A DNA stretch of 32,000 nt, taken from Nitrososphaerota archaeon (GTDB lineage Archaea > Thermoproteota > Nitrososphaeria > Nitrososphaerales > UBA57). Made by a program: the position numbers and the translations under genes. The notes under the pieces were generated by a model, which ran no database searches, was not told where the DNA came from, and was given only the letters and a program-made list of their open reading frames with translations. Of the stretch, positions 21 to 18,980 are shown one piece after another (positions within the stretch are counted from its first letter, which is position 1; every line of letters begins with the position of its first letter). The DNA lies in NCBI GenBank assembly GCA_016871995.1, contig VHBL01000007.1, positions 1 through 32,000 on the forward strand, in the 5' to 3' direction.

Positions 21-2171
21 ATGAGTCAAAATGGTTTAGGCAAGTCTGCGGCAGTAATAGTTGCGGCAATCCTCTTATTCTCTGTGTTTTCTGTATTGAC
101 ACTCTCCATAAAGCCTGCAGAAGCTCAGGCACAACTCCCTCGAGAACAAAGGAACTGGGAATATCTAAATGGAGATGCATGGGGACAGAACTACAACCCC
201 CAAAACCAGCTCAACAAAGACAATGTGCAGTTCTTAGAGCTTAAATGGATCTATCCAATACCAACAGTAACTCAGCAAGCTAATAGGCTTCAGGGATTCG
301 CCTCTGTTGCTGAGGGGTCTATGGCCCCGCCCCTTGTCGTAGACGGAGTCGTCTACACAGTCCTCAATAGCAAGATGATACTTGCACTGGATGCAAAGAC
401 AGGGAAAGAACTTTGGAGATACATATCTTCATTTGACAACAGGAACATAAATAGTTCATTACCCGTGATAACAGGTTATCAGTTAGGCCACACTCACGGC
501 ATACACTATGTCGATGGAAAGATATGGATGAACGACTTTGGATGCAAAGTAAGTGCAATAGATGCGAAGACTGGCAAGTCAGTAATGAACTACACTAACT
601 TATGCAGAGAGATTCCAATGGACAGCCCTCAAGGAATGGGCATTCCAACGAACTCTGGCTTTTACGCTGGTGCTGGAGGACATCCTCCTGCCTTCTATAA
701 CAGGGGTAACATAATGATCTGGTCAATCGGCGGAGCGGCTGAAGGGACCTGGGGCGGAAGGTCATATGTTGCAGGTCACGATATTACGACGGGTCAGCTG
801 AAATGGAGATTTTTCTACATCCCACCATGCGGAGATCCAGCAACATGCAAGCCTCTATTCCAAAGGGAGAAGCAAGAATGGGGCAACTGGCTAGTACAAA
901 ATTGCAATAAGATATGGATACAAGCCATAAGATCATGCACACTAGATCAGGATCTATTAAGAAACGACTTTGGAAACATGAGGTTCAACTCTGGAGTAAG
1001 CAATGTGTGGGGAACTTATGTAGTTGACCAAGAAACTGGCATAGTCTACTTTGGAACTGCGCAGGCAGGGCCAGACTGGAATGCAACGCATGCACCTGGC
1101 TTCAGACTGTTCGGAGCTTCAGTAATAGCACTTAATGCTGGAACAGGAGAGCTTGTATGGGCACATCAGACTACAGCACGGGACCTATGGGACTATGACT
1201 GCTCATGGAATACAGTACTTGCAAATGCAAAGATAAAGGGACAGAATAAGAAAGTAGTCATAAAGGGTTGCAAGAACGGAGTTGTACACGTACTAGATGC
1301 GGCTACAGGAGAGCTGATACACTTCCTGCAGAGTCCTGACATAAAGAGAACGCCTGAGCAGTTGTTAGGTAATAGGGAATGGGGTGGTATAACCTACGAT
1401 CCAAGGAGTAAGGAGCTTATGACGAAGCCGTGGACTAATTACCCAAGCAAAGATCCATTCTGGATGAACTGCCCAGTCACCGGGTGCCTCGAGTCAGACA
1501 TTGCATATGATCCAACAAGGAACATGGTGTATGCGGGTACCTATAATGCACCTACATGGAGCAGAGTTACAAACGTTGACCACAGAGGAGCGAGCTTAGG
1601 AGGACAAATAAATCCGGCTGGTTTTCCTGCACCATACTCACCAAAGATCAACTCAACAATCAATGCTTGGGACCTAGACACTGGTCAATTGAAATGGAAA
1701 TATTTCATCAATGATAAAGGCTTCAGAGGAGGAGTGTTGGTCAGCGGAGGACTAGTATGGTTCGCTGCAGTAGACGGAATCGCGAGAGCTCTAGATGCTG
1801 ATACTGGAAAAGTCCTCTATGAGCAAAACCTTGGTATTTCGACATTAATTCAACCAACAATAGCCGCAGATGCTGATGGCAAGGTGAAGCTCTTCAGAGT
1901 TGTTGGAGGGCGTGCACTTGGCGCACTCCTTGGTCCTGGCGTAGGGTCAGATGTACCTGGAGCAATAATGGCCTATGGTCTAAGCGACAATATTCCAGCA
2001 CCAAAGGAAGTCATAAAGGAAGTACCAAAGGAAGTCATAAAGGAAGTACCAAAGGAAGTCATAAAGGAAGTAACAGTGGAGACGGTTTCTCCGATATCCT
2101 ACGCTATAGTAGGGATAGGAATCATCGTAGCTGTAGTAGGTATAGTAGCATCAAGAAGAAAGAAGGCATAG
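21..2171 (+). CDS. PQQ-dependent (quinoprotein) dehydrogenase-like beta-propeller protein with N-terminal signal/anchor and C-terminal TM anchor
   Basis: 716-aa ORF. N-terminal hydrophobic segment AAVIVAAILLFSVFSVLTL. NWEYLNGDAWGQNYNPQNQLNKDNVQFLELKW resembles the conserved N-terminus of methanol/ethanol-family quinoprotein dehydrogenases. Recurrent blade motifs ALDAKTGKELW, AIDAKTGKSV, LDAATGELI, AWDLDTGQLKW, ALDADTGKVLY. C-terminal (KEVIKEVP)n linker, hydrophobic helix and RRKKA tail. Confidence 0.75.
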   Translation: MSQNGLGKSAAVIVAAILLFSVFSVLTLSIKPAEAQAQLPREQRNWEYLNGDAWGQNYNPQNQLNKDNVQFLELKWIYPIPTVTQQANRLQGFASVAEGSMAPPLVVDGVVYTVLNSKMILALDAKTGKELWRYISSFDNRNINSSLPVITGYQLGHTHGIHYVDGKIWMNDFGCKVSAIDAKTGKSVMNYTNLCREIPMDSPQGMGIPTNSGFYAGAGGHPPAFYNRGNIMIWSIGGAAEGTWGGRSYVAGHDITTGQLKWRFFYIPPCGDPATCKPLFQREKQEWGNWLVQNCNKIWIQAIRSCTLDQDLLRNDFGNMRFNSGVSNVWGTYVVDQETGIVYFGTAQAGPDWNATHAPGFRLFGASVIALNAGTGELVWAHQTTARDLWDYDCSWNTVLANAKIKGQNKKVVIKGCKNGVVHVLDAATGELIHFLQSPDIKRTPEQLLGNREWGGITYDPRSKELMTKPWTNYPSKDPFWMNCPVTGCLESDIAYDPTRNMVYAGTYNAPTWSRVTNVDHRGASLGGQINPAGFPAPYSPKINSTINAWDLDTGQLKWKYFINDKGFRGGVLVSGGLVWFAAVDGIARALDADTGKVLYEQNLGISTLIQPTIAADADGKVKLFRVVGGRALGALLGPGVGSDVPGAIMAYGLSDNIPAPKEVIKEVPKEVIKEVPKEVIKEVTVETVSPISYAIVGIGIIVAVVGIVASRRKKA
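2001..2072 (+). repeat. Perfect 3 x 24-bp in-frame tandem repeat (ccaaaggaagtcataaaggaagta) encoding PKEVIKEV x3
   Basis: Three identical 24-bp units read directly at 2001-2024, 2025-2048 and 2049-2072. Each unit is itself two diverged 12-bp subunits. It lies in the linker before the C-terminal TM helix of the PQQ-type dehydrogenase. Confidence 0.95.
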
Positions 2172-2178
2172 CAGAAGA

Positions 2179-2206
2179 GCCCCGAAGAGGGGCACCTATT
2201 ATTTTT
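2179..2206 (+). terminator. Putative terminator: GC hairpin plus T-rich tract downstream of the dehydrogenase gene
   Basis: gcccc-gaaga-ggggc stem-loop (2179-2193) followed by acctattatttttc, 8 nt after the stop codon. Confidence 0.45.
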
Positions 2207-2257
2207 CAAACGCTTTTCCGTTCGTAGTAATATGTCGTAATTTGCGATTATTTTTGG

Positions 2258-2297
2258 TGGACCGGGAGGTATTTGAATATGTTTAGGTTCAAATACC
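2258..2297. repeat. Distal att site: tRNA-Ala 3'-end copy (2258-2277) overlapping a perfect 10-bp inverted repeat (2268-2277 / 2288-2297)
   Basis: 12/12 identity to 11327-11338 and 18/20 to 11327-11346. ggtatttgaa-N10-ttcaaatacc palindrome read directly. Confidence 0.65.
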
Positions 2298-2498
2298 TTA
2301 CTTTTAGAGGTAATTTATGATATGTCAGTATGTCAGTTAAGGGTTAAATGGGTTTGATTCTTGCTTATTCTAACAATCAGAGCAATTTCTGAAGGGGTAT
2401 ATATAGGGGTTGGCGGATTGTAGTCTAAGGTCGCTTATCCTCTAGGTCTTTGACTTCCTTAATTTTGGATTTCCTCATTCGTCTTCTAATGTCAAGAC

Positions 2499-3083
2499 CT
2501 ACTCAGCCCGAGGCTTTTGGGTATTCAATTCTAAGAGTTTTAGTTTGCTCTCATAATACTTGTCCATATCAGGAACCTTCGCAAGGATATCCACCAATAG
2601 AAGGGACTGCTGCATTATACCCAAACTTATTACATGTAGCCTTATCGGATCGTGGCTCAGGGGTGTCTCTGATTTCCTTGAAATCAGCATATCTCGTAAA
2701 ATAGAATTTGTAAGCATGTCAACCATGTCCCTCCAATATCTGCTATCACCTTCTCCCCTGCGAAGATGCTCGGCTATTTTGGTTCGGTTATGCACAACTC
2801 TTACGAGTCTTGCACCGAGTTCTATCAACCATTGGCTATATCCATCCTTGGAGAACTCATAAACAGCGTTTGGAGGAAAGACCTTCTCTTTGTGCCTTAA
2901 AATGACACCTTCTTTTTCAAGCCAGTCAAGATACTTTCGCAGTGATGCGGTTCCTATACCCTTCCCCTTCTCTTGAATCTCCCGCCAAGGTTTAGGCTTC
3001 CCATCAGAAAATAATTTTAGAATGAAGTTCATAATACGGTTTTCATCAGAAAGAACCCTCTCTTCAAGATTGGTCATTTCCAT
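2499..3083 (-). CDS. Winged-helix DNA-binding protein (element-encoded regulator)
   Basis: The ORF-track start at 3113 is TTG, so I prefer the ATG at 3083 (MEMTNLEER...). N-terminal ILKLFSDGKPKPWREIQEKGKGIGTASLRKYLDWLEKEGVILRH looks like a wHTH recognition helix plus wing. It is divergent from the RHH gene. Confidence 0.5.
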   Translation of the reverse strand: MEMTNLEERVLSDENRIMNFILKLFSDGKPKPWREIQEKGKGIGTASLRKYLDWLEKEGVILRHKEKVFPPNAVYEFSKDGYSQWLIELGARLVRVVHNRTKIAEHLRRGEGDSRYWRDMVDMLTNSILRDMLISRKSETPLSHDPIRLHVISLGIMQQSLLLVDILAKVPDMDKYYESKLKLLELNTQKPRAE

Positions 3084-3156
3084 AAATGGCTCATATTTCA
3101 GTATCAAAAACAAACTTTATAAACATGTTGTTTTCATATTTCAGCATCGAAAACAA
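3084..3156. promoter_or_regulatory. Divergent promoter/operator: palindromic TATA box tttataaa (3116-3123) flanked by two 24-bp direct repeats
   Basis: tcatatttcagtatcaaaaacaaa (3091-3114) and tcatatttcagcatcgaaaacaaa (3134-3157) match at 22/24. The TATA box lies 33 nt from the minus-strand ATG (3083) and 34 nt from the plus-strand ATG (3157). Confidence 0.5.
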
Positions 3157-3318
3157 ATGAAAAAGCAAACCGAATACATCACCCTGTGTTTAGACATGGA
3201 GACTTTCAAGCGCCTCGAGGCCCGAGCAGAGCAGGAAGAAAGAAAACCGGGGCAGCTTGCACGATTGATTTTGAAAAAAGTGCTTGGAACCGAAGAGGAG
3301 GTTGCAATCGCAGCATGA
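3157..3318 (+). CDS. Ribbon-helix-helix (CopG/Arc/MetJ-like) protein
   Basis: 53 aa from the internal ATG: MKKQTEYITLCLDMETFKRLEARAEQEERKPGQLARLILKKVL. This is a beta-strand/helix/helix pattern typical of RHH. The upstream part of track ORF 3022-3318 overlaps the divergent gene and promoter. Confidence 0.6.
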   Translation: MKKQTEYITLCLDMETFKRLEARAEQEERKPGQLARLILKKVLGTEEEVAIAA

Positions 3319-3542
3319 AGGTTTCACTCGCGAGGACGAAGGGCTACGTTTCGAAATTACCAGTGTCGACTTTCAAAAACATCATTTTGGCCGAGCGTGA
3401 TGAAATTGAGCTCTCTGACCTGATTTCGAAACTTGAAACTTGGGAAATTCTACTCAATCAAGAAATGAGCTTTCGGGAGAAGTCCGGTTCAACGAAACTT
3501 CTCCCGGCTGCAGAGCCGGTTTCTTTAGGAGGCCCTGTGTAA
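3315..3542 (+). CDS. Hypothetical protein (75 aa), translationally coupled to the RHH gene
   Basis: ATGA overlap: the start at 3315-3317 overlaps the RHH stop at 3316-3318. No recognisable motif. Confidence 0.45.
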   Translation: MKVSLARTKGYVSKLPVSTFKNIILAERDEIELSDLISKLETWEILLNQEMSFREKSGSTKLLPAAEPVSLGGPV

Positions 3543-3543
3543 A

Positions 3544-4374
3544 GTGTTTACAGTCAATGCTGATATTAAAACGTTAACGCTTCAGGGGTTCATTAAGCTC
3601 TATCTTGAGTGGGGTATTTCTTTTGTACCTCTAATATACAAAGACAAAGCTCCGGCTCTTCAAGAAGGCGAGATTTACAAGTATCGGAAGAGGCAACCCA
3701 ACGAACAAGAGATAAAAAGATGGTTTTACAATGGCTCGCAACATGGCATAGCTGCTGTTTGTGGTTTCAATAACTTAGTATGCTTGGATTTTGACGATCG
3801 GAAGACATTCGAAGCCTACATAGCTGGAAGGCCCTTACCAGAAACTTTCATAACAAAGAGTGCCAGAGGCGTCCATCTTTACTTCATCAACGATAAGCCA
3901 ATTGGTAGTATGAGATACGAGGGCTTGAAAGTCGAACTGCTGGGGGCGTGGCATCTTTCAACGCTTCCGCCCTCTTTGCATCCTTCTGGCATTCAACATT
4001 CAATACTCAACATGCGTCCGATCAAATCGGTATTTGGAATTGAGACGGCATTTAACGCATTTGCAAAGTCTCAGGGTATAGACACTAAGAAATCTTCTAA
4101 GGCCATCACAAAGGCAGATTTAACGGGAATCGTCCCTGAGGGGATTAGGCACGAAACGGCAAAGAATTATGCTAAGCACCTCATTAGAGGCTTAAAACTA
4201 GATAGTACAACGTCTCTGTTCGAGCTTCAACGCTGGAATGAGAAGCATTGCGTACCTCCCCTTCCTGAAGGGGAACTCATAGACCTAGTACGGTATTTCA
4301 GCTCGAAGCAAAGGCAGATTTCTGCAGATTTGACCGAGGAGTTTGCAAAAAGGAGGGGTAGCTTTGCAGAGTGA
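3544..4374 (+). CDS. Bifunctional DNA primase-polymerase (AEP prim-pol domain)
   Basis: GISFVPL...KAP, LVCLDFDD (DxD metal site) and ARGVHLYF (sGxGxHxYF-like) in the order expected for Prim-Pol/pRN1-type AEP domains. GTG start 1 nt after the upstream stop. Confidence 0.7.
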   Translation: MFTVNADIKTLTLQGFIKLYLEWGISFVPLIYKDKAPALQEGEIYKYRKRQPNEQEIKRWFYNGSQHGIAAVCGFNNLVCLDFDDRKTFEAYIAGRPLPETFITKSARGVHLYFINDKPIGSMRYEGLKVELLGAWHLSTLPPSLHPSGIQHSILNMRPIKSVFGIETAFNAFAKSQGIDTKKSSKAITKADLTGIVPEGIRHETAKNYAKHLIRGLKLDSTTSLFELQRWNEKHCVPPLPEGELIDLVRYFSSKQRQISADLTEEFAKRRGSFAE

Positions 4375-5701
4375 ACTTTCCACAATCGCTTTGACAGAAG
4401 ACACTAAACCATATGAAGTTGCAGAGGCATACCTTCAAGCAGCTTTTGTAAAGACATTTTTTGACTCGAGTGAGATAGTCCTCTATCACGAAAAAGGGGT
4501 TTATGTTAGAAACGCCGAATGGATAATTGCAAAGGACATCGAAGAGGTCTTTCATAAGAAGAAGTTAGATAAACTTCTGACTAACAACTTCCTTACTGAA
4601 GTTCTAGGTCATATAAGGAGGAGAACTTATGTTAACCGCTCAGAGTTTGATAAAGAGCCTTTTATTCTTAATCTAAAGAATGGATTACTCAATGTACAAA
4701 CAGGGGAATTTACAAAGCACAGTCCTGAGCATCTCTCTTTAGTACAGTTTCAGGTTGAATACAATCCGAAGGCGAATTGCCTTAAGATAGCAAAGTTCCT
4801 TTCAGAAGTGTTATTCCCTGACGATCTCCAATGTGTACAAGAATACGTTGGTTTCTGTTTATGGAAAGAGTACACGGTTGCAAAGGCTCTCTTACTCGTT
4901 GGAGAAGGTGGAAACGGGAAGTCAACTTTCATTTTATTGATTAAGGCATTAATCGGAAGTGAAAATACCTCCTCAGTTTCACTTCAAGAATTGGAATATA
5001 ACAGATTTGCGAAAGCAGATTTGTACGGAAAGCTAGCTAACCTCTATGCAGATCTTCCTGATGAAGCTCTAAAGAGCGCTGGGGTTTTCAAAATGTTGAC
5101 CGGCAAAGATCCAATAAGGGGAGAGTACAAATTCAGAAATTCCTTTCCCTTTGTCAATCTTGCAAAGTTGATTTTTAGTGCTAATAAGGTTCCAGAGTCA
5201 TATGAAGATACGACAGCATTCTTTCGGCGTTGGATAATTATTCTATTTCCTTTTACATTCATAGGCAAGAATGAGAACAAAGACCTCGTCAATGAGCTGA
5301 CAACGGAAGAGGAGCTTTCAGGCTTCTTGAATTGGGCTTTAGAAGGGCTGCAAAGACTTAGAGCTAACGGTTGGAACTTCAGTAATAGTAGGAGCGTAGA
5401 AGAGGTCAGGGAAGAGTACATTCGAAAATCCTCCCCGATACAAGCTTTCATCATGGATTGTATTGATATTGATAGTTATAGCGAAATTCCGAAAAAACAG
5501 CTATTCGATAAGTTTCTTGAGTACTGTAAGAGCAAGAAACTACCTGCTCCTTCAGATCAGACCTTTTTCAAGAAATTACCTCGATTTGTCAACATAACTG
5601 ACACTAGGCCGGAGGTTGGCGGAAAGAGAGTTCCCTGTTTCAAAGGGATCAAACTAAAGGAAGAGGAGGGCGTAAGAAACGCTCAAGCAAAGATTAGTTA
5701 A
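4343..5701 (+). CDS. D5/P4-type SF3 helicase (phage/plasmid primase C-terminal domain)
   Basis: Walker A LLVGEGGNGKST. Downstream KLANLYADLPDE then RGEYKFRNSFPF, typical of D5_N/primase-C families. The start is ambiguous: TTG at 4343, or TTG at 4364 which lies 8 nt after ggagggg. Confidence 0.75.
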   Translation: MQKGGVALQSELSTIALTEDTKPYEVAEAYLQAAFVKTFFDSSEIVLYHEKGVYVRNAEWIIAKDIEEVFHKKKLDKLLTNNFLTEVLGHIRRRTYVNRSEFDKEPFILNLKNGLLNVQTGEFTKHSPEHLSLVQFQVEYNPKANCLKIAKFLSEVLFPDDLQCVQEYVGFCLWKEYTVAKALLLVGEGGNGKSTFILLIKALIGSENTSSVSLQELEYNRFAKADLYGKLANLYADLPDEALKSAGVFKMLTGKDPIRGEYKFRNSFPFVNLAKLIFSANKVPESYEDTTAFFRRWIIILFPFTFIGKNENKDLVNELTTEEELSGFLNWALEGLQRLRANGWNFSNSRSVEEVREEYIRKSSPIQAFIMDCIDIDSYSEIPKKQLFDKFLEYCKSKKLPAPSDQTFFKKLPRFVNITDTRPEVGGKRVPCFKGIKLKEEEGVRNAQAKIS

Positions 5702-5712
5702 CTCTTCTGACA

Positions 5713-5811
5713 TTAAGATAGGAAAAACCCCTGACAGAGTTGACAGGGTTGACGGAACTAGGGTTTTTGCGTCAGGGCTGTCAGGGCTGTCAACCCATTT
5801 CCCTATCTTAA
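5713..5811. repeat. 99-bp composite palindrome: outer 10-bp IR enclosing 3 forward + 3 inverted 9-bp iterons (YTGACRG core)
   Basis: ttaagatagg (5713-5722) pairs with cctatcttaa (5802-5811). Forward units are ccctgacag, agttgacag, ggttgacgg (5729-5755). Inverted units are gcgtcaggg, ctgtcaggg, ctgtcaacc (5769-5795). The spacer is 13 bp. Confidence 0.8.
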
Positions 5812-6053
5812 GTTCCGAAAGCCCAAAGGCTAACCCTTCAACCTTAGACTATTGGATCCAAAGTCCGAAACTTAACGCTAGGTTAACTCTAATCAAAGAA
5901 AAACCCTCTAAACTTAACGGGTTAACTATTCCTTCCTTCAGGCTAGGAATAAAATGCTCTGAGCATAAAGACCTTCAATATAACAATCCAATTTCATGGA
6001 GAGATCACTACCTCTTAACGCATGGCTTGATATTTGAAGAGGAGCAAAGTTAG

Positions 6054-6293
6054 ATGCCGAAAGCTAGGCTTGAAAGCGAAGGCAGTTATGAGAGATGGCT
6101 TAGTCAGGTTGCGAAGTTTAGCAATCGCTTTAGCCCTTACAAAATTCCCAGAACAAAGGAGCATGGAATAAGGAAGAGGCCGAAGCCTGAGCATGAAGCT
6201 ACAATCAGATACGAATGTAAGCCATGTGATCTAACCTTTCAGAATTTAGATTTGTACGAGATTCACAATGCGCTCAAGCATAAAGCAGGATAG
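6054..6293 (+). CDS. C2H2 zinc-finger protein
   Basis: YECKPCDLTFQNLDLYEIHNALKH is a classical C-x2-C-x12-H-x4-H finger. gaggag lies upstream of the ATG. Confidence 0.6.
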   Translation: MPKARLESEGSYERWLSQVAKFSNRFSPYKIPRTKEHGIRKRPKPEHEATIRYECKPCDLTFQNLDLYEIHNALKHKAG

Positions 6294-6969
6294 TGTTAGC
6301 AAATTGCAAACAATCAAGAATAAACGCAAAGGAAAGATGCTCCAACCTGAGGTTGCTCAAAAATGGGAAGCTCTGAAGCAATCTCTAAACTTCAGATCGG
6401 ATAACGAATTTGCCAATGCTCTTTTAGAAACTCAGAAGGATCGCTTAGTCCCCTTTGTCAGCCATGAAACTGTATTTAATTCACCTGCTCCAACTCTCAT
6501 AATTGGGGAGCCGGGTTCAAGAAAAACAACCTTAGTTAAGCAGTTAATCCCTTCAATTCGAAATTCTATCCTATGCATTGATCCCCATAGCGAGTACTTA
6601 GAATTGGAGCAGTTCAACGGGAAGGGAGAGGTTGTTAGCAAAGTCCCCTTAGGTTTCGAAATACTGAAGGGTTCGATGATTGACTTTAGCAGGAAACAAC
6701 GATTGAGGTTTATCCCTTCACAAAACCCCTTTGTTTCTGAAGCTGAGACAACTAGCCTCTTTATGAGTTTGAATGAAAGCAGGGAAAAAATGAAGGGTTG
6801 GACTCTAATCGTTGACGAATGTCATAGGTTCTCAGGTAATAGTTTATTCCGAAGCTTCATAACAGAGAGTAGAAAGTATTCGATAAAGTCAATTTTGATA
6901 ACTGCTGATTATGCGAAGTTTGAAGGGTTGGGCTATTTCCTAAGGCCTGCTCCAATTGGAAGGGCTTGA
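6268..6969 (+). CDS. HerA/FtsK-like P-loop ATPase with deviant Walker A
   Basis: IIGEPGSRKTT (Walker A with R in place of the second conserved G), CIDPHSEY (HerA/DUF87-like DphgEY) and LIVDECHRF (Walker B). The ATG at 6337 is an alternative start that avoids overlap with the preceding gene. Confidence 0.6.
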   Translation: MRSSIKQDSVSKLQTIKNKRKGKMLQPEVAQKWEALKQSLNFRSDNEFANALLETQKDRLVPFVSHETVFNSPAPTLIIGEPGSRKTTLVKQLIPSIRNSILCIDPHSEYLELEQFNGKGEVVSKVPLGFEILKGSMIDFSRKQRLRFIPSQNPFVSEAETTSLFMSLNESREKMKGWTLIVDECHRFSGNSLFRSFITESRKYSIKSILITADYAKFEGLGYFLRPAPIGRA

Positions 6970-7278
6970 ATGTTTCCAATCGTCATATCCCCTGAAATTA
7001 CAATAGTCATCTTCGGCGTGATAGTCTTACTTACCCTTCTGTTTCTTCAATCCCTAATATCAGGGTTCGGCTTAAGGGCCATTACTCGTTTCATTGTGGC
7101 AATCTTGACCCTGCTCGGTTTTGCACTGGGCCTGATGCCATTTATCCTGAACTCAGCAGGCTCTTCGATGGAGCTTTCAATTTTTACTCTGGTCTTTTTA
7201 TCAATTGGCCTTTCGGTGTCTAGCTTCGCTTTGAGTTTTTTGATAATAAGACCCTCTGCCAGTCATGCCAGAGCCTAG
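6970..7278 (+). CDS. Small integral membrane protein (about 3 TM helices)
   Basis: The ATG immediately follows the ATPase TGA. 102 aa, almost entirely hydrophobic segments. Confidence 0.5.
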   Translation: MFPIVISPEITIVIFGVIVLLTLLFLQSLISGFGLRAITRFIVAILTLLGFALGLMPFILNSAGSSMELSIFTLVFLSIGLSVSSFALSFLIIRPSASHARA

Positions 7279-7471
7279 AATTTTAGTTAATAGCTGATCT
7301 AAGAAGGGGTACTATCACACGTACACACACTAATAGCAAATCTCAATCAAAATTTGTTATTTTGTTCGTGATCTGTCAAATTCAAAAATTCCGTCTAGCT
7401 GTGGATTGACCAAATCAAATTCAGCAGTTAACTTTCAAATCTTATCAGGCGACAAAAAGAATTGCCCAAAG

Positions 7472-7650
7472 ATGTTAAAGATGGTAAAGATGCCGAACAA
7501 CCGTCTGTTAGCATTATTTAATTAGTTGTGGTATATTGAGCGTCGCCCAATCAAACAATCCTAAAGTTAACCGAAGCTCTGTCAATGATTGATGTTGACG
7601 ATGTGGGTGAACAAGAAGAGATTGCCCGTCTATAGATATATTATTTCTAT
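7472..7650 (+). repeat. Direct repeat copy 1 (upstream of methyltransferase-like gene), containing two micro-ORFs
   Basis: 38-bp block 7561-7598 is identical to 8857-8894. 23-bp block 7628-7650 is identical to 8924-8946, with the same 67-bp spacing. Micro-ORFs: 7472-7525 (MLKMVKMPNNRLLALFN) and 7585-7635 (MIDVDDVGEQEEIARL). Confidence 0.85.
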
Positions 7651-7721
7651 ATTGGTAGTTGTCGGGCTAGTTTGGAGAATGAGTATGTTTTTATTTTTGT
7701 TGTCAAGTAGATGTAAAAGAC

Positions 7722-8684
7722 ATGGATAACGCTCTAATTAACAAAATTGAAGGCTCTCTTCTAAAATTAAGAATGTATCAAGCGCAGAGAACTCTCAGCA
7801 TAGAAAAATATTGGCAAATGACATCTTTTACAAAGTTAAGGAGTCGGTTCTCGGAAAAATATGCTTATGCTAACAGATACGATTGTTCGGCTTTCATGTT
7901 AGACTTTTGGAATAAAAAATGCCTTGAACTAGAAAAGAGATTCCTTCCATACCCCCCCTTTTCTTTTCTAAGGGACAAGACAATCAGAGCCACAATGAAT
8001 ATATCTGAAGGTTATGCTTTCTGGCTCTTACAAAAGTATCTCCAATTCCTAGAAACGAGACTTTCTGAAGATTACCTATCGAATATGCTTCAAGAAGATT
8101 ATGTTGGAGAGCAAATCATTCTTAATTCAAAATACATGACTTCGTATGAAACTGTCCAGCATCTTTATCACTTCTTAAAATTAGCTGATTTTGGATGCAA
8201 AATAGATGATGTATCAAGCGTTGTAGAATGGGGAGGAGGATATGGTGATATGGCGAAGCTTTTTGTCAGAATGAACTCAAATAGAAACGTCAGCTATACA
8301 ATAATAGATATTCCCATAATGTCCTGCCTTCAATGGCTTTATCTTTCAAGTATTTTTGGTGAAGGGAAGGTTAAGATTATCCAAGACAGAGGTGAGCGAA
8401 TTGATAACGGGAAAATAAATTTGCTTCCTATATCTCTGGTTGAAAAATGCGATATTAACGCTGATCTATTCATATCTACATGGGCTTTAAGCGAATGTAC
8501 TAATTATGCTCAAGATTACGTGGTCAATAAGAACTGGTTCAACGCTAGAAACATCTTGCTCGCCTATCAATATAACACTTCAGAGGTTCCAAATGCTGAA
8601 AGGTTAGGCAGGTTAGCAGAGCAAAGTGGAGCAAATGTGCAAGAAATGGAGATAGTGCCAAGACATCATTATGCTTTTCGGTAA
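7722..8684 (+). CDS. Putative class I SAM-dependent methyltransferase (sugar O-methyltransferase-like), cargo gene
   Basis: 320-aa ORF. VVEWGGGYGDMAKLF resembles SAM-binding motif I (E/DxGxGxG), followed by an acidic residue about 20 aa later (IIDIP). AT-rich relative to its surroundings. Assigned by motif only. Confidence 0.45.
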   Translation: MDNALINKIEGSLLKLRMYQAQRTLSIEKYWQMTSFTKLRSRFSEKYAYANRYDCSAFMLDFWNKKCLELEKRFLPYPPFSFLRDKTIRATMNISEGYAFWLLQKYLQFLETRLSEDYLSNMLQEDYVGEQIILNSKYMTSYETVQHLYHFLKLADFGCKIDDVSSVVEWGGGYGDMAKLFVRMNSNRNVSYTIIDIPIMSCLQWLYLSSIFGEGKVKIIQDRGERIDNGKINLLPISLVEKCDINADLFISTWALSECTNYAQDYVVNKNWFNARNILLAYQYNTSEVPNAERLGRLAEQSGANVQEMEIVPRHHYAFR

Positions 8685-8771
8685 CGGGGTTCAATTTAGG
8701 CTATTTCTACCACATGGTAAATATTGAATGTATAAATCTAATTAGAAGGCAGAAGATAGTACCTGTTAATA

Positions 8772-8946
8772 ATGGGACTGATGGGATTGGTGGAAATCCC
8801 GAACAACCTGCTAGGTAGATTTAATTAATTAGTTATGGTGGGACAATCAAACTATTCTAAAGTTAACCGAAGCTCTGTCAATGATTGATGTTGATGATGT
8901 TGACGAAGGGGACGATGATGCCGGTCTATAGATATATTATTTCTAT
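8772..8946 (+). repeat. Direct repeat copy 2 (downstream of methyltransferase-like gene), containing two micro-ORFs
   Basis: See copy 1. Micro-ORFs: 8772-8828 (MGLMGLVEIPNNLLGRFN) and 8881-8931 (MIDVDDVDEGDDDAGL). Confidence 0.85.
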
Positions 8947-9131
8947 GCTGATAATAGTTTGATTAGTTAACTTAGTGCAAAGTCCCTAGTATAGTCAGGC
9001 TCAAACCCTAGCTGACAAAGGCATGTTTCGGCATGGGTCCCCCTAGCCAAACAAAGAGGAAATTGGTTAACTCTTATTCAATATTCTCCTAGAAACTTAA
9101 CTTTAATAACCTGCAGGGACTATATCAAATC

Positions 9132-9746
9132 ATGCAAAGTCATTTAGTTTTGAAGGGAGCAGAAGAGCTGATTAAGGAAGAGCTAGGGGATAATCCTGCT
9201 CAGGATCAGAAGGTCAAGGTTTATGCTTCTCATTTAGCAGATAGATGCACTCAGTTATCAGGGGAAACATGGACTTCTAAGAACTGCACAAACTCTTTGC
9301 GATCTTACGGGCTTTGGGATAGCGAACGGTTTCCAACTTTGCAGGGGAAATACGGCTTCTACGTTTTAGTTTCTTTGAATGACCTAAAGCAATTGAACCT
9401 CTGGGAGTGCTATGTATGCAATAGCAGGATCGTCAAAGGTCAGGGTAATGTTTGGCCTCATATCTTTGAATGTTGGGTAGAAGGGGTTTCCTGCTCTAAT
9501 TTATATTGTAATACCGTTGTTAAATCCTATGAAGAGGTACTTGAACATGAAAAAAATTGTCAGGTTTCTTTTATACCCTATAACTATGGTAGTTGCCCTG
9601 CCTGCAATGCGAAAATAAAACTATCAGAAATCAGAAGGCATGTCAATCAATGCAAAGATATCTTATCATGGGAGGAGCCTGAGCAACCTAGCACAAAGGA
9701 AACAGAAACCCCTAGCATAATCGAAGTTAAGAATGAAGCGCCCTAG
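9132..9746 (+). CDS. Cysteine-rich protein with three C2HC-type zinc-finger-like motifs
   Basis: CYVCNSRIVKGQGNVWPHIFEC, CSNLYCNTVVKSYEEVLEHEKNC and CPACNAKIKLSEIRRHVNQC each follow a C-x2-4-C-x12-H-x3-C pattern. Confidence 0.55.
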   Translation: MQSHLVLKGAEELIKEELGDNPAQDQKVKVYASHLADRCTQLSGETWTSKNCTNSLRSYGLWDSERFPTLQGKYGFYVLVSLNDLKQLNLWECYVCNSRIVKGQGNVWPHIFECWVEGVSCSNLYCNTVVKSYEEVLEHEKNCQVSFIPYNYGSCPACNAKIKLSEIRRHVNQCKDILSWEEPEQPSTKETETPSIIEVKNEAP

Positions 9747-9792
9747 AAGAGTCAATCAGGATCTTCTAGCCATAATGCAAAGGTACGGGATT

Positions 9793-9946
9793 AGTGAAGA
9801 TGGTGAAGTTAGTGAAGGCAGTGAAGGTAAAAAACACCCCCCATTATTTCCAGAAGTTCGTCAATTAACTAATAAAGATTCGTCAGAAAAAACAGGGGAG
9901 GCTCTGGGAAGTTCACCACCTTCACCAAGTTCAGTAACTTCAGTAG
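9793..9946. repeat. Inverted arrays of 9-bp-phased GTGAAG hexamers (4 forward at 9793-9828, 4 inverted at 9911-9946)
   Basis: Forward: agtgaagat ggtgaagtt agtgaaggc agtgaaggt. Inverted: gttcaccac cttcaccaa gttcagtaa cttcagtag. Spacer 82 bp. The arrays lie just outside the integrase 3' end. Confidence 0.8.
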
Positions 9947-9952
9947 ATAAAG

Positions 9953-11272
9953 TCAGGAAGGCAGTTTGATGATCGCTTTATCGTTAGGGATATGCGTTGC
10001 AAATTCCCAACCCTGCAATATGTAATTCTCCAATTCGTTAAGAGGAATAACCTTCTGCCTTGATCCATTACCCGTTAACATCTCTCTGTACTTCTTAGCG
10101 ATAAGCTCCTGAAACTCTTTGCTAGTTATGTTTGCCAAATCTAGTTTAGCGATCTCCCCTTCTGAATAACCTAAATCTGCCAATAGAGCAGCTCTAAACC
10201 CTCCTCTAACATCTTGCTGAGAGCTGATAACCCTAGTCTGCAAATATTCCTTTGAAGCTTTAGCATAGGAAGCTCTCATATCCTCTATTACGCTCTCAGG
10301 TAGTTTGTGCTTATTCGTTGTGTACCTAGCTTCGATATCCCCTTTATGTCCCATGAAAAAGACCCTATAATCTCTTAGAATGAGGCCCTTACTCTCAGCT
10401 AACATCATTTCAGTATCAAAATAACTTCTTAGAACATAGGGCCTCCATGAAAAACCTGCTTCCCTTATGGGACCTCTGAGAGCATCACCAATATTGTTAG
10501 ACCTGATAAACGGCCTGTCAGCTGCTTTGAATGTTGGTGATTTCGCTTTAATGAGAGGGGACTCTGGATCGAATTTACTAGTACCATTCCCCCTTAACCT
10601 GCTCTCAAGATAGTCTTTGAGATATTCGCAAGCCTCTTCATTCAGGAAGCTAAAGTATTGATGTCTTGCTTTGCTAAGTTGCGATCTGACAATAACCCTA
10701 GCAGGAATAACCGTAAAATTGACCTCTGACCCCTTGATCTCAAGCTCAGGAATATCCATAACTCTGAGTCCGTCAGAGCCGTCATAATTGCCAATACTTT
10801 CAAGCCTAAGGCCTGCAAAGCACACTAAGGAGGCCGTTGTCTTAACCTTCGGATCGGCAAAGGATAGTATCTTAACCAATTCCTTCTGAGTTGGGACTCT
10901 CTCTTCCTTCAGTGAAGGGGTTTCGTCAGCTCCTTTGACCTTGATTTTTCTTTTAACTTCAATCCCATGATGAGAGAGCCATGACTTTACATTCTTTAAC
11001 CTGCTTTCAACATAAGAGCCTGCATATTTCTGCCTCTCCATAGAGCTGACATAATCCATAAGGAGATTATAGAGGTCCTGCTCATTCAGCTTCAAAAGGT
11101 CTTTAGGTTGCTTTCTAACATTCTGACAGAAGTTTCCTAGTCCACGAAGATAAACGTCAGCTGTTGTTATTGCACCCCTAGCAACATTCTCATACCATCT
11201 TTTGATATCAGGGTCTTTAAGGAGGGCTTGATGTTCACCTTTGCCTTTTTCCCTATACTTCCCCTTAGCCAT
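9953..11272 (-). CDS. Tyrosine recombinase/integrase (non-partitioning type)
   Basis: AGLRLES (Arg I), YVLRSYF (Arg II region) and MGHKGDIEARY (His/Tyr nucleophile). Adjacent to the target tRNA. I prefer the ATG at 11272 (MAKGKYREK...), because the track start at 11368 reads through the tRNA gene. Confidence 0.85.
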   Translation of the reverse strand: MAKGKYREKGKGEHQALLKDPDIKRWYENVARGAITTADVYLRGLGNFCQNVRKQPKDLLKLNEQDLYNLLMDYVSSMERQKYAGSYVESRLKNVKSWLSHHGIEVKRKIKVKGADETPSLKEERVPTQKELVKILSFADPKVKTTASLVCFAGLRLESIGNYDGSDGLRVMDIPELEIKGSEVNFTVIPARVIVRSQLSKARHQYFSFLNEEACEYLKDYLESRLRGNGTSKFDPESPLIKAKSPTFKAADRPFIRSNNIGDALRGPIREAGFSWRPYVLRSYFDTEMMLAESKGLILRDYRVFFMGHKGDIEARYTTNKHKLPESVIEDMRASYAKASKEYLQTRVISSQQDVRGGFRAALLADLGYSEGEIAKLDLANITSKEFQELIAKKYREMLTGNGSRQKVIPLNELENYILQGWEFATHIPNDKAIIKLPS

Positions 11273-11326
11273 AACACTAAGTCTAAAAGATTGCACTAGA
11301 TAAGGGTATCTGAACCCGTTTATAGA

Positions 11327-11400
11327 TGGACCGGGAGGGATTCGAACCCTCGACCCCCACCATGCCAAAGTGGTATCCTACCAGGCTAGACGACCGGCCC
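11327..11400 (-). tRNA. tRNA-Ala (anticodon GGC)
   Basis: Manual cloverleaf: GGGCCGG/CCGGTCC acceptor with the G3:U70 alanine identity pair, anticodon loop TTGGCAT, T-arm GAGGG-TTCGAAT-CCCTC, discriminator A, no encoded CCA. Confidence 0.9.
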
Positions 11401-14984: not shown

Positions 14985-15061
14985 TTTTTGACAGATAGGC
15001 TACACTGGATGCTATATTTAACATTGCTTGCCAAGACACAATCTTAAATTCCAACATTCTG

Positions 15062-15802
15062 ATGCTGTGTAATATGGAGGAACAGAAGCATCCACTTACA
15101 AGGCGGCAGTTCATCCAGAGGCTCAGGCGCTTGGGTTTGAGTAGGTATCAGGACAAACATCCCTTTACGGTGATACTCAACCAAGGCAAGCTGACAAAGA
15201 CGCAGCTGCAGGCCTATATTCTGAATTGGTACTATTTTGAAAAGATGATACCGCAGAAGGATGCTGGAATCATATCCAATTGCCCTATACCAGAAGTTAG
15301 AAGGATATGGGTTTCAAGGATTCTTCGCCATGATGGGTATGGCGATATTGAGGGTGCGACGGAAGGCTGGCTAAGGCTGTGCTTGGCCGCAGGGATAGAC
15401 CGTAATACTGTAATGAGGGCCCGGTTCCTGCCTGGAGTTAGGCTTGCAATAGATTCCTATGTCCAATACACAAAATCCAAAACATGGCTTGAGGGAATAG
15501 CAACATCGCTTACGCAAGTATTTCTGCCGAGACTTGTTGAAAGAAGGGTGAATGCTTTTGTGAAACATTATGAGGACTATGTTTCTCCCAAAGGTTTGGA
15601 GTATTTTATGTCCCTGCAGAATGCTGCGAAAGAGGGCAGCAAGATGGCCCTTGATTTAGTTCTTCGCTACGCTGCGACGAGAGAAGCGCAAGATATGGTT
15701 ACCAACGCTGTACTGTATATGGACGATGTCCTGTGGAGCATACTTGATGCGATATATTCTGCTTACGTTGTCAGGAGTGCATCTCTGTCAGCCTCCATAT
15801 GA
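15062..15802 (+). CDS. pqqC: PqqC-like protein (pyrroloquinoline-quinone synthase / TENA-THI4 fold)
   Basis: HPFTVILNQGKLTKTQLQAYILNWYYFEKMIPQKDAGIISNCP closely follows the PqqC N-terminal signature (hPF...G.L...ql..W..NrYyyq..IP.KDa.ilsnc). Confidence 0.65.
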   Translation: MLCNMEEQKHPLTRRQFIQRLRRLGLSRYQDKHPFTVILNQGKLTKTQLQAYILNWYYFEKMIPQKDAGIISNCPIPEVRRIWVSRILRHDGYGDIEGATEGWLRLCLAAGIDRNTVMRARFLPGVRLAIDSYVQYTKSKTWLEGIATSLTQVFLPRLVERRVNAFVKHYEDYVSPKGLEYFMSLQNAAKEGSKMALDLVLRYAATREAQDMVTNAVLYMDDVLWSILDAIYSAYVVRSASLSASI

Positions 15803-16043
15803 TCTAGTACTGTTCTACCTAAAGATCCTCAGGTTAGCCTCTGCAGACGGGGGTTACAATATGAAGCCAGAATGAATACTCCTGTACTAGTGTCCTCCTC
15901 TCCCGGCATGAGAGGGGGATGCTACGCTGTTAATTCCTTCCCTGCATTTTTTGCGATGAATTGTTGGGTAGAGTACTTTACTCGAGTAAGAGTTACTAAA
16001 ACGTATCACATGAGCAATATTTTCCGTGTTTTTGTATTTAAAC

Positions 16044-16508
16044 TCAAAAAGTCGGATTTGAATTTCCGCCTGAAAGAGCGATTTCTATTACTTTTTTTGT
16101 GTTGGACGCATTTAGTGCCTTTTCATCCATAAAGAAAATCTCCCATATGTGCCCGTCTAGGTCTTCGAAACTGCGCCCGTACATCCATCCATGGTCTTGC
16201 GACTTTCTAGGCTCTTTGCCGCCTGCATCCAATGCCAATTTTATCATCTTGTCTACCTTTGCCCTGCTTTCAATAGATAGCGCGATCAGCACCTCTGTAC
16301 TTTTCTTAGCATCAGAAACCTCCTTGTTTGTGAATGTCTTGAAGAACTTTTCAACCAAGAGCATTACGAATATGTCATCAGCGACGATCATGCACGTTGC
16401 ATTCTTATCAGTAAATTGGGGGTTAAACTTGAATCCGAGTTTGGTGAAGAACTTTATTGTCTTGTTGAGATTCTTAACAGGTAGATTGACAAATATTTGT
16501 TTTACCAT
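16044..16508 (-). CDS. VOC (glyoxalase/bleomycin-resistance/dioxygenase) family protein
   Basis: IFVNLPVKNLNKTIKFFTKLGFKF ... SFEDLDGHIWEIFFMD is typical of the VOC beta-alpha-beta-beta-beta module. Confidence 0.75.
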   Translation of the reverse strand: MVKQIFVNLPVKNLNKTIKFFTKLGFKFNPQFTDKNATCMIVADDIFVMLLVEKFFKTFTNKEVSDAKKSTEVLIALSIESRAKVDKMIKLALDAGGKEPRKSQDHGWMYGRSFEDLDGHIWEIFFMDEKALNASNTKKVIEIALSGGNSNPTF

Positions 16509-16612
16509 AGCATTTTAGAGTAGTCAATCTATAAAACTTTTGGAAAAAGTTGCCTTTTTGCAACAAAGGCCTCCCGATTCGAATTGTATGCATTACAAGC
16601 CATCTCTATTTT

Positions 16613-17572
16613 CTAATAATCAGAGAGTCTCTTACCAGATTTCTGAAGAAATATCTTTAGTTCATTCAATGTTGGCACACTACGCGCTCCTTGCTTTGTG
16701 GTCGATACTGCCGCAACCAAATTAGCAAACCTGCAAGCGTCAACAAATCTTTTCTTATCAATCAGCGCAGAAATTAGTGCAGCAGAGAATGCATCACCGG
16801 CTCCGGTAGTATCTATTGCATGAACATCAACCGGCACCTTGATTTCTTTTGTGTGGCTTTCGTTGATTATGCAGCCATCTTTTCCTAAAGTTACTACGAC
16901 AAGTCTGGGGCCGTAATCCCTGATGATCTTGAAACTTTCCTGTATGTCGTCACTATTGGTGAAGACCTTTACTTCTTCCGAATTTAATTTCAGAATAGTA
17001 GTATAAGTAAGAATCTTTCTGAACTTTTCAATGCCTTTTACCGCAAATTTGAAGCCCGGATCGAATAGAACGCTTACGCCAGTCTGTGATGCATATTTTG
17101 CGGCGACTTCAAGTATCTCTACTGCTTCGTTATTTACGATGCTATGCAATGAAAGGAACGTCGAATTTTGTATATAGTCTTTTTTTACATCGCTCTTTGA
17201 AAAGGTCGACTGCACTCCACCATTTAGATACAAAATTCTCTGGCCCTTTTTGTTGACTATGGCTATTGCCATGCTAGAGCTGTTCTGCTCTATTTTTGCG
17301 CCGCTGATGTCGACTCCTTCCCTCTTGAATTCATCAATCAGAAATTTGCCAAAGTTGTCATTGCCTATCTTTCCGATAAAGCCAGATTTTTTCCCAAGCC
17401 TGCGGACACCGACGGCGACGTTTGCAGCAGAACCACCTCCTTGCAGTTCACTTTTCTCAGTTGTTGCCTCTTGGTCGGATTTTGCAAAATCTTTTACGTA
17501 CAGCATGAGGTCTATGTTTGCTGCACCAATTGAAACTAAATCTAGCACAGTATCATCACTGACCACATGCAA
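16613..17572 (-). CDS. PfkB-family carbohydrate/nucleoside kinase
   Basis: GGGSAANVAVG (PfkB signature 1 region) and DTTGAGDAFSAALI (PfkB signature 2). Confidence 0.85.
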   Translation of the reverse strand: MHVVSDDTVLDLVSIGAANIDLMLYVKDFAKSDQEATTEKSELQGGGSAANVAVGVRRLGKKSGFIGKIGNDNFGKFLIDEFKREGVDISGAKIEQNSSSMAIAIVNKKGQRILYLNGGVQSTFSKSDVKKDYIQNSTFLSLHSIVNNEAVEILEVAAKYASQTGVSVLFDPGFKFAVKGIEKFRKILTYTTILKLNSEEVKVFTNSDDIQESFKIIRDYGPRLVVVTLGKDGCIINESHTKEIKVPVDVHAIDTTGAGDAFSAALISALIDKKRFVDACRFANLVAAVSTTKQGARSVPTLNELKIFLQKSGKRLSDY

Positions 17573-17710
17573 TAAAATCCTTACCGATGTTCATCTCAGC
17601 GGTGTCTTTGTAGTGAGCCAAGGCGCAATCGCTGATGTTAGAAGTCATTTTGGACACTTAATAAATCCAAATCATAAGTATATACCGAGCAAAACTCAAC
17701 GGGTGATTGT

Positions 17711-18652: not shown

Positions 18653-18841
18653 GCGCATCAGAATAACTGCTGAAATTACTGGTATAAAATATGTTCCGAA
18701 ACTTGGAAGGACGCTACACGAATTTTATATCTCATCACTGGCGGAGGCACTTTCGACAGATGTGTCGTTTTTTAGAAACGGATGATTGTACGTTAAGGGT
18801 TTATCTTGGATTTGGGCTGATTCTGGCGATGTTTTTTGTAG

Positions 18842-18916
18842 TGGGCCAGGGCGGACTTGAACCACCGACCTTCGCTGTGTAAGAGCGATGTCCTAACCAA
18901 GCTAGACGACTGGCCC
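18842..18916 (-). tRNA. tRNA-Val (anticodon TAC)
   Basis: Manual cloverleaf: GGGCCAG/CTGGCCC acceptor, anticodon stem TCGCT/AGCGA, loop CTTACAC, T-arm GGTGG-TTCAAGT-CCGCC, discriminator A. Confidence 0.9.
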
Positions 18917-18980
18917 GAGCTGAGCCAGAACTTGCATTTTCTAATAAGCATTCTAACTTCATATTTTATTTCTGCAGGTC

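Follow-up and report, generated by a model that had tools for sequence, protein, structure and literature searches.

A putative integrative, plasmid-like element of the cryptic integrated element class at a tRNA-Ala(GGC) gene of a Nitrososphaerota archaeon

A 32,000-nucleotide stretch of contig VHBL01000007.1 from the Nitrososphaerota archaeon assembly GCA_016871995.1 (the window, positions 1 to 32,000 of the forward strand) contains a 9.06 kb interval of deviant composition beside a tRNA-Ala(GGC) gene. With a probability of roughly 0.68, this interval, at positions 2270-11326, is an integrative, self-replicating, plasmid-like element of the cryptic integrated element (CIE) class. The element is probably still functional, and its mobility is suggested by its sequence anatomy. 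A first-pass annotation of this DNA had left a virus-like or plasmid-like nature open; the evidence now leans towards the latter, given a replicon built like that of the pRN plasmids and an integrase family that was not found in IMG/VR. The element is a fairly ordinary example of the CIEs already described in Thaumarchaeota, and a rare ATPase is its one unusual gene. New here are the pRN-like reading of the replicon with its candidate origin, the tRNA-then-integrase geometry across the whole integrase family, a population structure of conserved ends with a variable middle, and the recognition of the rare ATPase as a backbone gene common to several elements. The host is labelled "Thaumarchaeota / Nitrososphaerota archaeon" by NCBI (MBM3898478, MBM3898481, MBM3898483). 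The features that delimit the element are as follows.

2270-11326: integrated element between the att cores, 9,057 bp
2258-2269: attL core, a duplicate of the 3'-terminal 12 nt of tRNA-Ala, with likeness extending to 2277
2270-2407: conserved left arm of 138 nt, common to variant elements with differing interiors; the similarity ends at about 2396-2407
9953-11272, minus strand: tyrosine integrase of 439 aa, not split by integration, with a conserved C-terminal extension
11327-11338: attR core, the final 12 nt of the intact tRNA-Ala(GGC) gene
11327-11400, minus strand: tRNA-Ala(GGC) gene, the integration target, intact by ARAGORN and Rfam

The window contains just two copies of the plus-strand 12-mer TGGACCGGGAGG (2258-2269 and 11327-11338), and none of 100 dinucleotide-preserving shuffles gave any match. 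The two copies agree at 12/12 positions in the core and at 18/20 once extended, as the first-pass annotation had reported. The Rfam span of the tRNA includes the G3:U70 identity pair, and its discriminator A73 is position 11327. On the tRNA strand, the attL copy continues into CCA and then AAAATAATCGC (CCA + AAAATAA), and the intact tRNA has TCTATAAAC downstream in place of a CCA trailer, its 3' trailer now being supplied by the element. A related tRNA-Ala gene from another metagenome (L005), which shares this trailer with the window but not synteny, continues into CCA + AAAATA, as at attL, and for this reason the left flank is taken to hold the original trailer of the tRNA. An original trailer beyond attL is what recombination within a 12-nt core at the tRNA 3' end would predict. 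A strain variant (L097) has CCA-AGAATAATCAC, and a CCA + A-rich trailer is thus common to the window, L005 and L097. The interval had also been described by eye as more AT-rich than its flanks, which holds: GC content is 40.5% in the element and 45.4% in the rest of the window, the tetranucleotide distance to the host profile is about twofold greater within the element (24-27) than in the flanks (11-16), and both windowed measures shift at both repeats. The left arm contains a perfect 11-nt inverted repeat (2267-2277 and 2288-2298) and two tandem copies of TATGTCAG at 2321-2336.

The intact tyrosine integrase noted earlier beside the tRNA is upheld in full. Its motifs comprise box I GLRLE (R156), K201, YVLR (R282), GH (H309) and RY (Y317), and these five catalytic residues are invariant in an alignment of 28 homologues; in the YVLR motif, the usual H is replaced by Y throughout the family. 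The window protein matches PF00589 only below threshold (2.5e-4, 21.3 bits, cut-off 27.1), and PF00589 is found in many of its homologues. With the catalytic residues of the superfamily in place, the protein is a diverged tyrosine recombinase. Its start (11272) lies 54 nt from the tRNA and att core, which is upstream of and outside the gene, and the integrase is therefore of the archaeal type that is left intact by integration, unlike the SSV type. Integration is likely to have proceeded by recombination between an attP just upstream of the integrase gene and the final 12 nt of the host tRNA-Ala(GGC), as judged from the anatomy; this would have rebuilt the tRNA at the integrase end and left a 12-nt tRNA fragment with the original CCA trailer at the far end.

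The integrase belongs to a large family, with more than 2,253 homologues at E <= 1e-5, the best 120 listed being 52-62% identical, and it aligns with its homologues across 96-99% of its length. A scan of GTDB genomes identified 276 loci, the majority in Bathyarchaeia and others in Hadarchaeota, Thermoplasmata, Methanomassiliicoccales, Nitrososphaeria and further lineages. The neighbourhoods of 80 of these loci (L009-L088) were fetched, and 69 had enough upstream sequence to assess tRNA geometry. At 49 of the 69, the integrase is preceded by a co-oriented tRNA whose end lies 14-90 nt (median 36 nt) away, with 25 anticodons represented. The ORFs (open reading frames) downstream of the family integrases encode mainly resolvases, restriction-modification methylases, TFIIB and SMC-like ATPases, with no virion or capsid genes among them, and searches of IMG/VR and of phage and plasmid records returned no family member. 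The window element shares essentially no genes with the 80 loci. Downstream of 46 related integrases, few plausible tRNA-derived repeats lie within 10 kb (L052, L047, L012), suggesting that the majority of the relatives are larger elements or that their att sites are imperfect. At the locus of the closest integrase relative (L009, GCA_964644785.1; 62% identity), only a tRNA 3' fragment (GTTCGTGGGTTCAAATCCCACCGGGCCCGC) precedes the integrase, at 7090-7130, where ARAGORN finds no tRNA; the fragment adjoins an N6_N4 methyltransferase gene, which shows synteny with window 17710-18651.

The left part of the element encodes a replication module and its putative regulators.

2499-3083, minus strand: putative winged-helix (wHTH) regulator, divergent from the replication operon
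3091-3157: two 24-nt direct repeats, 92% identical and 43 nt apart, a candidate operator in the divergent promoter region
3157-3318, plus strand: ribbon-helix-helix-like (RHH-like, CopG-like) protein of 53 aa, assigned by eye, first gene of the replication operon
3315-3542, plus strand: orf75, 75 aa, no assigned function, between the RHH-like ORF and prim-pol
3544-4374, plus strand: prim-pol (archaeo-eukaryotic primase), PF09250 at 1e-13
4343-5701, plus strand: D5_N and SF3 helicase (P4-family primase C-terminal domain), DUF5906 at 4e-21 and TIGR01613 at 4e-61
5715-5810: iteron stem-loop, a 96-nt imperfect palindrome and candidate origin, starting 14 nt past the helicase stop

The prim-pol and D5-like SF3 helicase of the first-pass annotation are both supported by the profile matches above; gene callers place the helicase start at 4364. 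By eye, the prim-pol has a PriCT-1-like C-terminal region. It is 29% identical (E 6e-9) to the prim-pol domain of the pHEN7 replication protein (Rep), and the helicase is homologous to the C-terminal half of the same protein (E 2e-37). The stem-loop consists of 3 + 3 inverted 9-nt iterons (consensus ~NNYTGACAG) flanking a T-rich spacer, and its DNA fold of -18.3 kcal/mol (z -3.3) was equalled by none of 200 shuffles. The minimal replicon of pRN1 is an RHH-rep operon with a stem-loop of ~100 nt 3' of rep that is needed for replication (PMC4234260), and pHEN7 has a comparable stem-loop just after its rep gene. By this analogy, 3084-5810 may be read as a pRN-like replicon with a split Rep, the origin role being predicted from structure. 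The 53-aa RHH-like ORF occupies a position analogous to pRN1 orf56 (PMC4234260); it has no match in Pfam or PHROGs and no BLASTP similarity to pHEN7 CopG. The wHTH regulator is weakly matched by HxlR (9e-4, below cut-off) and phrog_2030 (6e-4). Weak homologues of orf75 adjoin related integrases at three other loci (L048, L027 and L028; E 1e-5 to 3e-5). A 15-mer of the promoter repeats, ATTTCAGTATCAAAA (3095-3109 and 3138-3152), recurs exactly inside the integrase gene at 10407-10421, where it may be a shared regulator-binding site or a chance occurrence. By analogy with pRN1, replication of an excised circle of ~9.07 kb would start at the stem-loop that follows the helicase gene and would use the element's own prim-pol and D5/SF3 helicase under the control of the RHH-like repressor and the divergent wHTH regulator.

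According to the description of CIEs in Thaumarchaeota (Krupovic 2019, PMC6563490), these elements have att sites of 8-26 bp (median 17 bp) and target tRNA 3' ends; examples are CalSub-E1, NitKor_MY1-E1 and NitAQ6f-E4, and CalSub-E1 has its prim-pol and SF3 helicase as separate genes. The window element resembles them in host phylum, in its tyrosine integrase, in short repeats (12 bp here) derived from the 3' part of a tRNA gene, in its separate prim-pol and SF3 helicase, as in CalSub-E1, and in its small proteins of putative RHH, wHTH and zinc-binding type. Like them, it combines an integrase and defined boundaries with none of the hallmark genes of viruses, casposons or conjugative elements. 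The class is, however, defined by exclusion and lacks a signature gene, and the likeness of the window element to it is one of described features. The small ATPase common to the window and three related elements is not mentioned in the passages of PMC6563490 that were consulted. With the pRN plasmids (pRN1, pHEN7), the element shares an operon order in which a putative RHH-type repressor precedes the replication protein(s), and a stem-loop of ~100 nt directly 3' of rep. It differs from them in several respects: Rep is a single polypeptide in the plasmids and is encoded by two genes here (3544-4374 and 4343-5701), no homologue of PlrA, a feature of the pRN family, was found in the element, its RHH-like protein has no detectable similarity to pHEN7 CopG, and its host is a mesophilic thaumarchaeon, whereas pRN hosts are Sulfolobales. 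The integrative relatives of the pRN plasmids differ further in their SSV-type integrase, which is split by integration.

The element is also found in closely related populations, where its ends are conserved and its middle is exchanged. One contig (L098) is 100% identical to window 1237-9431. In L097, the element is 99.9% and the right flank 100% identical to the window, and both repeats are present; relatives with the gene block but without flanking repeats, which would have spoken against integration, were not seen. Another contig (L092), which shares its ENA sample with L097, matches the window at 100% identity as far as 2407 and then carries a different wHTH-like gene, while L103 and L003 retain the host flank and the integrase and differ in the interior beyond it. 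The integrase region of L103 has 99.5% DNA identity to the window, and its interior contains an ortholog of the zinc-finger protein zf204 at 84%, no methyltransferase and an ATPase allele of the type found in another small element, L089. Eight further contigs (L104 and six similar, and L002) end within ~130 nt of the integrase 3' end, which suggests that variants co-exist in those samples. At least three interiors therefore lie between the same ends, the 138-nt arm and core on one side and the integrase and tRNA on the other, in near-identical hosts, a pattern that points to recent turnover. Misassembly could have produced some of the variant joins, but a simple mis-join at k = 141 is argued against by the six positions (2310-2395) at which the arms of L097 and the window differ.

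No capsid, portal, terminase, spike, relaxase or type IV secretion family was recognised in the element by Pfam, PHROGs, NCBIfam or PADLOC, in keeping with the earlier statement that recognisable capsid and conjugation genes are lacking. The combination of VirB4, VirD4 and a pore or pilus that characterises integrative-conjugative elements was not found, the only related signals being sub-threshold P-loop matches from one ATPase. A reading as a defence system was also rejected, since PADLOC gave nothing meaningful. The ATPase is encoded in a second operon (6054-7278) of three genes.

6054-6293, plus strand: zf79, a C2H2-type zinc-finger protein of 79 aa, assigned by eye, with a 26-nt overlap with the ATPase start
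6268-6969, plus strand: small P-loop ATPase, an ASCE core preceded by an RHH-like N-terminal region
6970-7278, plus strand: memb102, an integral membrane protein of 102 aa with 3-4 hydrophobic helices, directly after the ATPase stop

The ATPase family is rare, with 113 representatives among 1.84 billion cluster representatives, mostly of 200-280 aa. Its consensus has a Walker A motif of TGxPGSGKT and a Walker B motif of EEAHRF, and the window protein has GEPGSRKT and IVDECHRF. The first-pass annotation of a "deviant P-loop ATPase" stands as regards the P-loop, but "deviant" was overstated, since the relatives have a canonical GxxxxGKT and the window copy differs only by R for the second G. DUF87/HerA matches were obtained with 27 of 52 family members (best E 3e-8); matches to VirB4, VirD4/TrwB, CedD and phrog_2666 ("terminase large subunit") extend over the P-loop only, as do those from sequence searches of the PDB. 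Structure prediction covered the ATPase only, the other ORFs being judged by sequence profiles. A first AlphaFold2 (AF2) model had a pLDDT of 68, and a second, made with nine sequences, had a pLDDT of 82 and contains an N-terminal beta-alpha-alpha region, which may be read as RHH-like, followed by an ASCE core. A Foldseek search of the PDB with the second model returned as best matches ClpB NBD1, Sulfolobus HerA (TMq 0.44), VirB4/TrwK and assorted RecA-fold ATPases. In the predicted structure the ATPase resembles the FtsK-HerA group, with generic ASCE ATPases scoring about as well as HerA, VirB4 and viral packaging ATPases.

The ATPase gene is the sole gene besides the integrase that is common to the window element and L009 (59% identical), L089 (54%) and L103, and is thus a backbone gene, not cargo. 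No relatives of the ATPase were found in phage or plasmid records or in IMG/VR. As the signature gene of this group, the RHH-like/FtsK-HerA-like ATPase would most likely move or segregate element DNA, which is the least supported step of the proposed mechanism, and the sequence and fold evidence cannot separate a packaging from a transfer role. L089 (GCA_024860875.1, JACPSZ010000001.1, 7260-13316) is a 6,041-bp element at the 3' end of an elongation factor 2 (EF-2) gene, flanked by a 16-nt repeat, ATTCTGTATCGAT[A/G]AA. It encodes a distant integrase (25% identity, with the same C-terminal extension), the small ATPase, wHTH genes and an HNH-like protein; neither a recognisable replication gene nor a capsid candidate was found in it. 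More distant ATPase relatives (~22% identity) are located just downstream of large ParB_N proteins in L093 (8562-10708) and L096 (1200-4280). These are contigs of 25-39 kb that represent mobile elements of unassigned kind; L093 encodes a D5-like primase, and a PHROGs scan of it recognised no structural genes, while L096 encodes a DUF87/HerA ATPase.

Several observations weigh against a mobile, plasmid-like element. A degenerate attL/attR/attB/attP scan of JGI metagenomes and IMG/VR found no empty site and no circular junction; its matches were the occupied site and unrelated tRNA-Ala genes only. The predicted junctions are ...CCGTTTATAGA|TGGACCGGGAGG|TATTTGAATATG... for attP and ...GATTATTTTTGG|TGGACCGGGAGG|GATTCGAACC... 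for attB. In all 11 contigs with an identical flanking helicase the site is occupied, the integrase adjoining the tRNA, and this end of the element may have become fixed in the population. Given this full occupancy, excision is inferred only, and of the earlier proposal of an integrated element that may still be excisable, the first part is borne out by the repeat, integrase, replicon and composition and the second stands as a prediction from anatomy. The RHH assignment of the 53-aa ORF was made by eye only. The membrane protein memb102 is not conserved beside the ATPase in the related elements L009 and L089. The best folds of the ATPase in a viral library are the small packaging ATPases of capsid-forming viruses, and a very divergent virion protein may be encoded among orf75, zf79, memb102, zf204 and orf78.

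The last two points bear on an alternative that is unlikely but survives better than the others, namely that the interval is a provirus or helper-virus satellite of unrecognised type. The ATPase would then be a packaging motor like A32 or B204, the membrane protein a part of the packaging vertex or virion membrane, and the capsid protein either too divergent to recognise or borrowed from a helper. A Foldseek search of BFVD is led by a Corticoviridae NTPase, the Haloarcula virus PH1 ATPase, an STIV protein and A32-like packaging ATPases (E 2e-6 to 1e-3), and the first model also brought up B204 of STIV and STIV2 when searched against the PDB. These TM-scores are low, however, at <=0.46 against the query (the STIV protein has a TMt of 0.63), and the better model gives generic ASCE ATPases in the PDB (ClpB, HerA, VirB4, RecQ). 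Sequence offers the match to phrog_2666 at 4e-7. Large conjugative ATPases are roughly 500-900 aa, and an ATPase of ~200-230 aa without extra domains suits viral packaging ATPases more than conjugative ones. The window protein is, like STIV B204, vaccinia A32-like proteins and PRD1 P9 of the Varidnaviria, a small stand-alone P-loop ATPase of ~200 aa with a small membrane protein encoded beside it, and PRD1 also has small membrane packaging proteins. It differs from them in its low TM-scores, in having no family membership at the sequence level, and in its extra N-terminal RHH-like region. No jelly-roll capsid gene is detected beside it by profile, its neighbours encoding a zinc-finger and a membrane protein. 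In PMC6563490, the double-jelly-roll proviruses of Thaumarchaeota are shown to carry HxlR regulators and zinc-binding proteins, as would suit a provirus, but no major capsid protein is detected here by profiles, and the only ORF of fitting size is methyltransferase-like. The ATPase and integrase families were not found in IMG/VR or phage records, and L089, at just 6 kb, is likewise without a capsid candidate.

A second alternative, that the interval is a minimal self-transmissible or mobilisable element, is quite unlikely. The ATPase would in this case be a single-protein DNA translocase, comparable to TraB of Streptomyces (pSAM2), or a coupling protein for the pore of another element. Actinomycete elements such as pSAM2 are ~10 kb in length, with a tyrosine integrase at a tRNA 3' end, attP next to the integrase gene, their own replication protein, a single FtsK-like transfer ATPase, small membrane proteins and regulators. 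The gene set of the window element (integrase, prim-pol, regulators, one ATPase and a small membrane protein) parallels theirs, an analogy only, as the domain of life differs and no homology is shown, and the ATPase lacks the transmembrane and wHTH domains of TraB. Matches to VirB4, VirD4, TrwB and CedD models are repeated but weak, all far under the family cut-offs and mostly confined to the P-loop. HerA and VirB4/TrwK among the top PDB folds, the NCBI product name of a 55%-identical ATPase homologue and the retention of the ATPase as sole non-integrase gene across four element variants also favour transfer. Against this, the protein lacks both a transmembrane segment and partners for a pore or pilus, conservation of the ATPase does not extend to the membrane protein, and no relaxase or clt-like site was identified in the element.

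A fixed genomic island that is no longer mobile, with a vertically inherited integrase end and an interior changed by ordinary homologous recombination, would account for the full occupancy, the empty junction scan, the near-identity of L097 (99.9-100%) across element and right flank and the several assemblies that break exactly at the integrase 3' end, but is very doubtful, as every ORF is intact, both att cores are identical, the integrase catalytic residues are conserved, and replacement by related circular elements explains at least three interiors between the same ends more easily.

Alongside the preferred reading of a plasmid-like CIE, a broader but unlikely proposal can be put forward tentatively. 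Together, the ATPase and an integrase that targets tRNA or EF-2 genes may mark out a family of archaeal elements, 6-9 kb in size and not yet described (the window element, L009, L089 and L103), that would spread without capsid or conjugation genes of their own, either as helper-capsid satellites or by single-ATPase transfer. Were the satellite route true, a sequence-specific motor of the element's own would package its DNA into the membrane-containing capsid of a helper virus.

The element is a small replicon with clear boundaries, an addition to the few mobile elements catalogued from uncultured, mesophilic Nitrososphaerota, and the replicon (RHH-like gene, prim-pol, helicase and stem-loop) is of a size that makes it worth trying as a vector backbone in archaea without genetic tools. 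Two further points come to light, the fixed tRNA-then-integrase geometry of a large integrase family and a rare ATPase that travels with the integrase in several tiny elements, although neither alters the current picture of archaeal mobile elements.

The remaining features lie between the second operon and the integrase.

7482-7672: ~190-nt direct repeat, upstream copy, before the methyltransferase-like gene
7722-8684, plus strand: class-I S-adenosylmethionine (SAM) methyltransferase-like protein of 320 aa (sugar O-methyltransferase-like, TIGR04371), putative cargo
8788-8968: ~190-nt direct repeat, downstream copy, after the methyltransferase-like gene
9132-9746, plus strand: zf204, a cysteine-rich protein of 204 aa with C2HC zinc fingers, zf_C2HC_14 (PF18574) at 3.7e-6
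9733-9969, plus strand: orf78, 78 aa, of doubtful reality, with a 9-nt tandem repeat inside and missing in variant E3

The methyltransferase-like cargo gene proposed by the first-pass annotation is supported by its match to TIGR04371 (1.3e-10), at 41.3 bits slightly below the cut-off of 44, and the same match led to the rejection of this ORF as a hidden capsid gene. Its GC content, 36%, is the lowest in the element, and variant E3 lacks the gene. It is bracketed by the ~190-nt direct repeat and so looks like exchangeable cargo, a role that it would also have in the proposed mechanism. The repeat copies are 82% identical with a 38-nt exact core, and in both an acidic micro-ORF of 16 codons (MIDVDDV...L*) is retained, with a TATA-like A/T stretch behind it. 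A structured RNA in the repeat was considered and rejected (z -2.0 to +0.1). The zf204 ortholog in variant E3 has 84% amino-acid identity. Of the regulators and zinc-finger proteins named earlier, the C2HC protein is thus supported by profile (3.7e-6) and the wHTH protein weakly so (9e-4), whereas the RHH and C2H2 assignments were made by eye, zf79 having no match in Pfam or PHROGs. A scan for bacterial-type promoters and terminators was uninformative.

Outside the element, a second and milder stretch of low GC (~0.40-0.42) and deviant tetranucleotide composition is located at window 15000-19000. It contains PfkB, a glyoxalase-like gene and an N6_N4 DNA methyltransferase gene, and ends at a tRNA-Val(TAC) beside a lone BrxL-like gene; a second island at this tRNA was rejected, as no repeat of the tRNA-Val 3' end was found. 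To the left of attL, a PQQ beta-propeller gene (window 142-2257) is 80.8% identical in L097, whereas the window and L097 are 100% identical at 1-127 and 99.9-100% identical from ~2396 on. The pattern suggests that one gene beside the integration site has undergone allelic replacement or has diversified.

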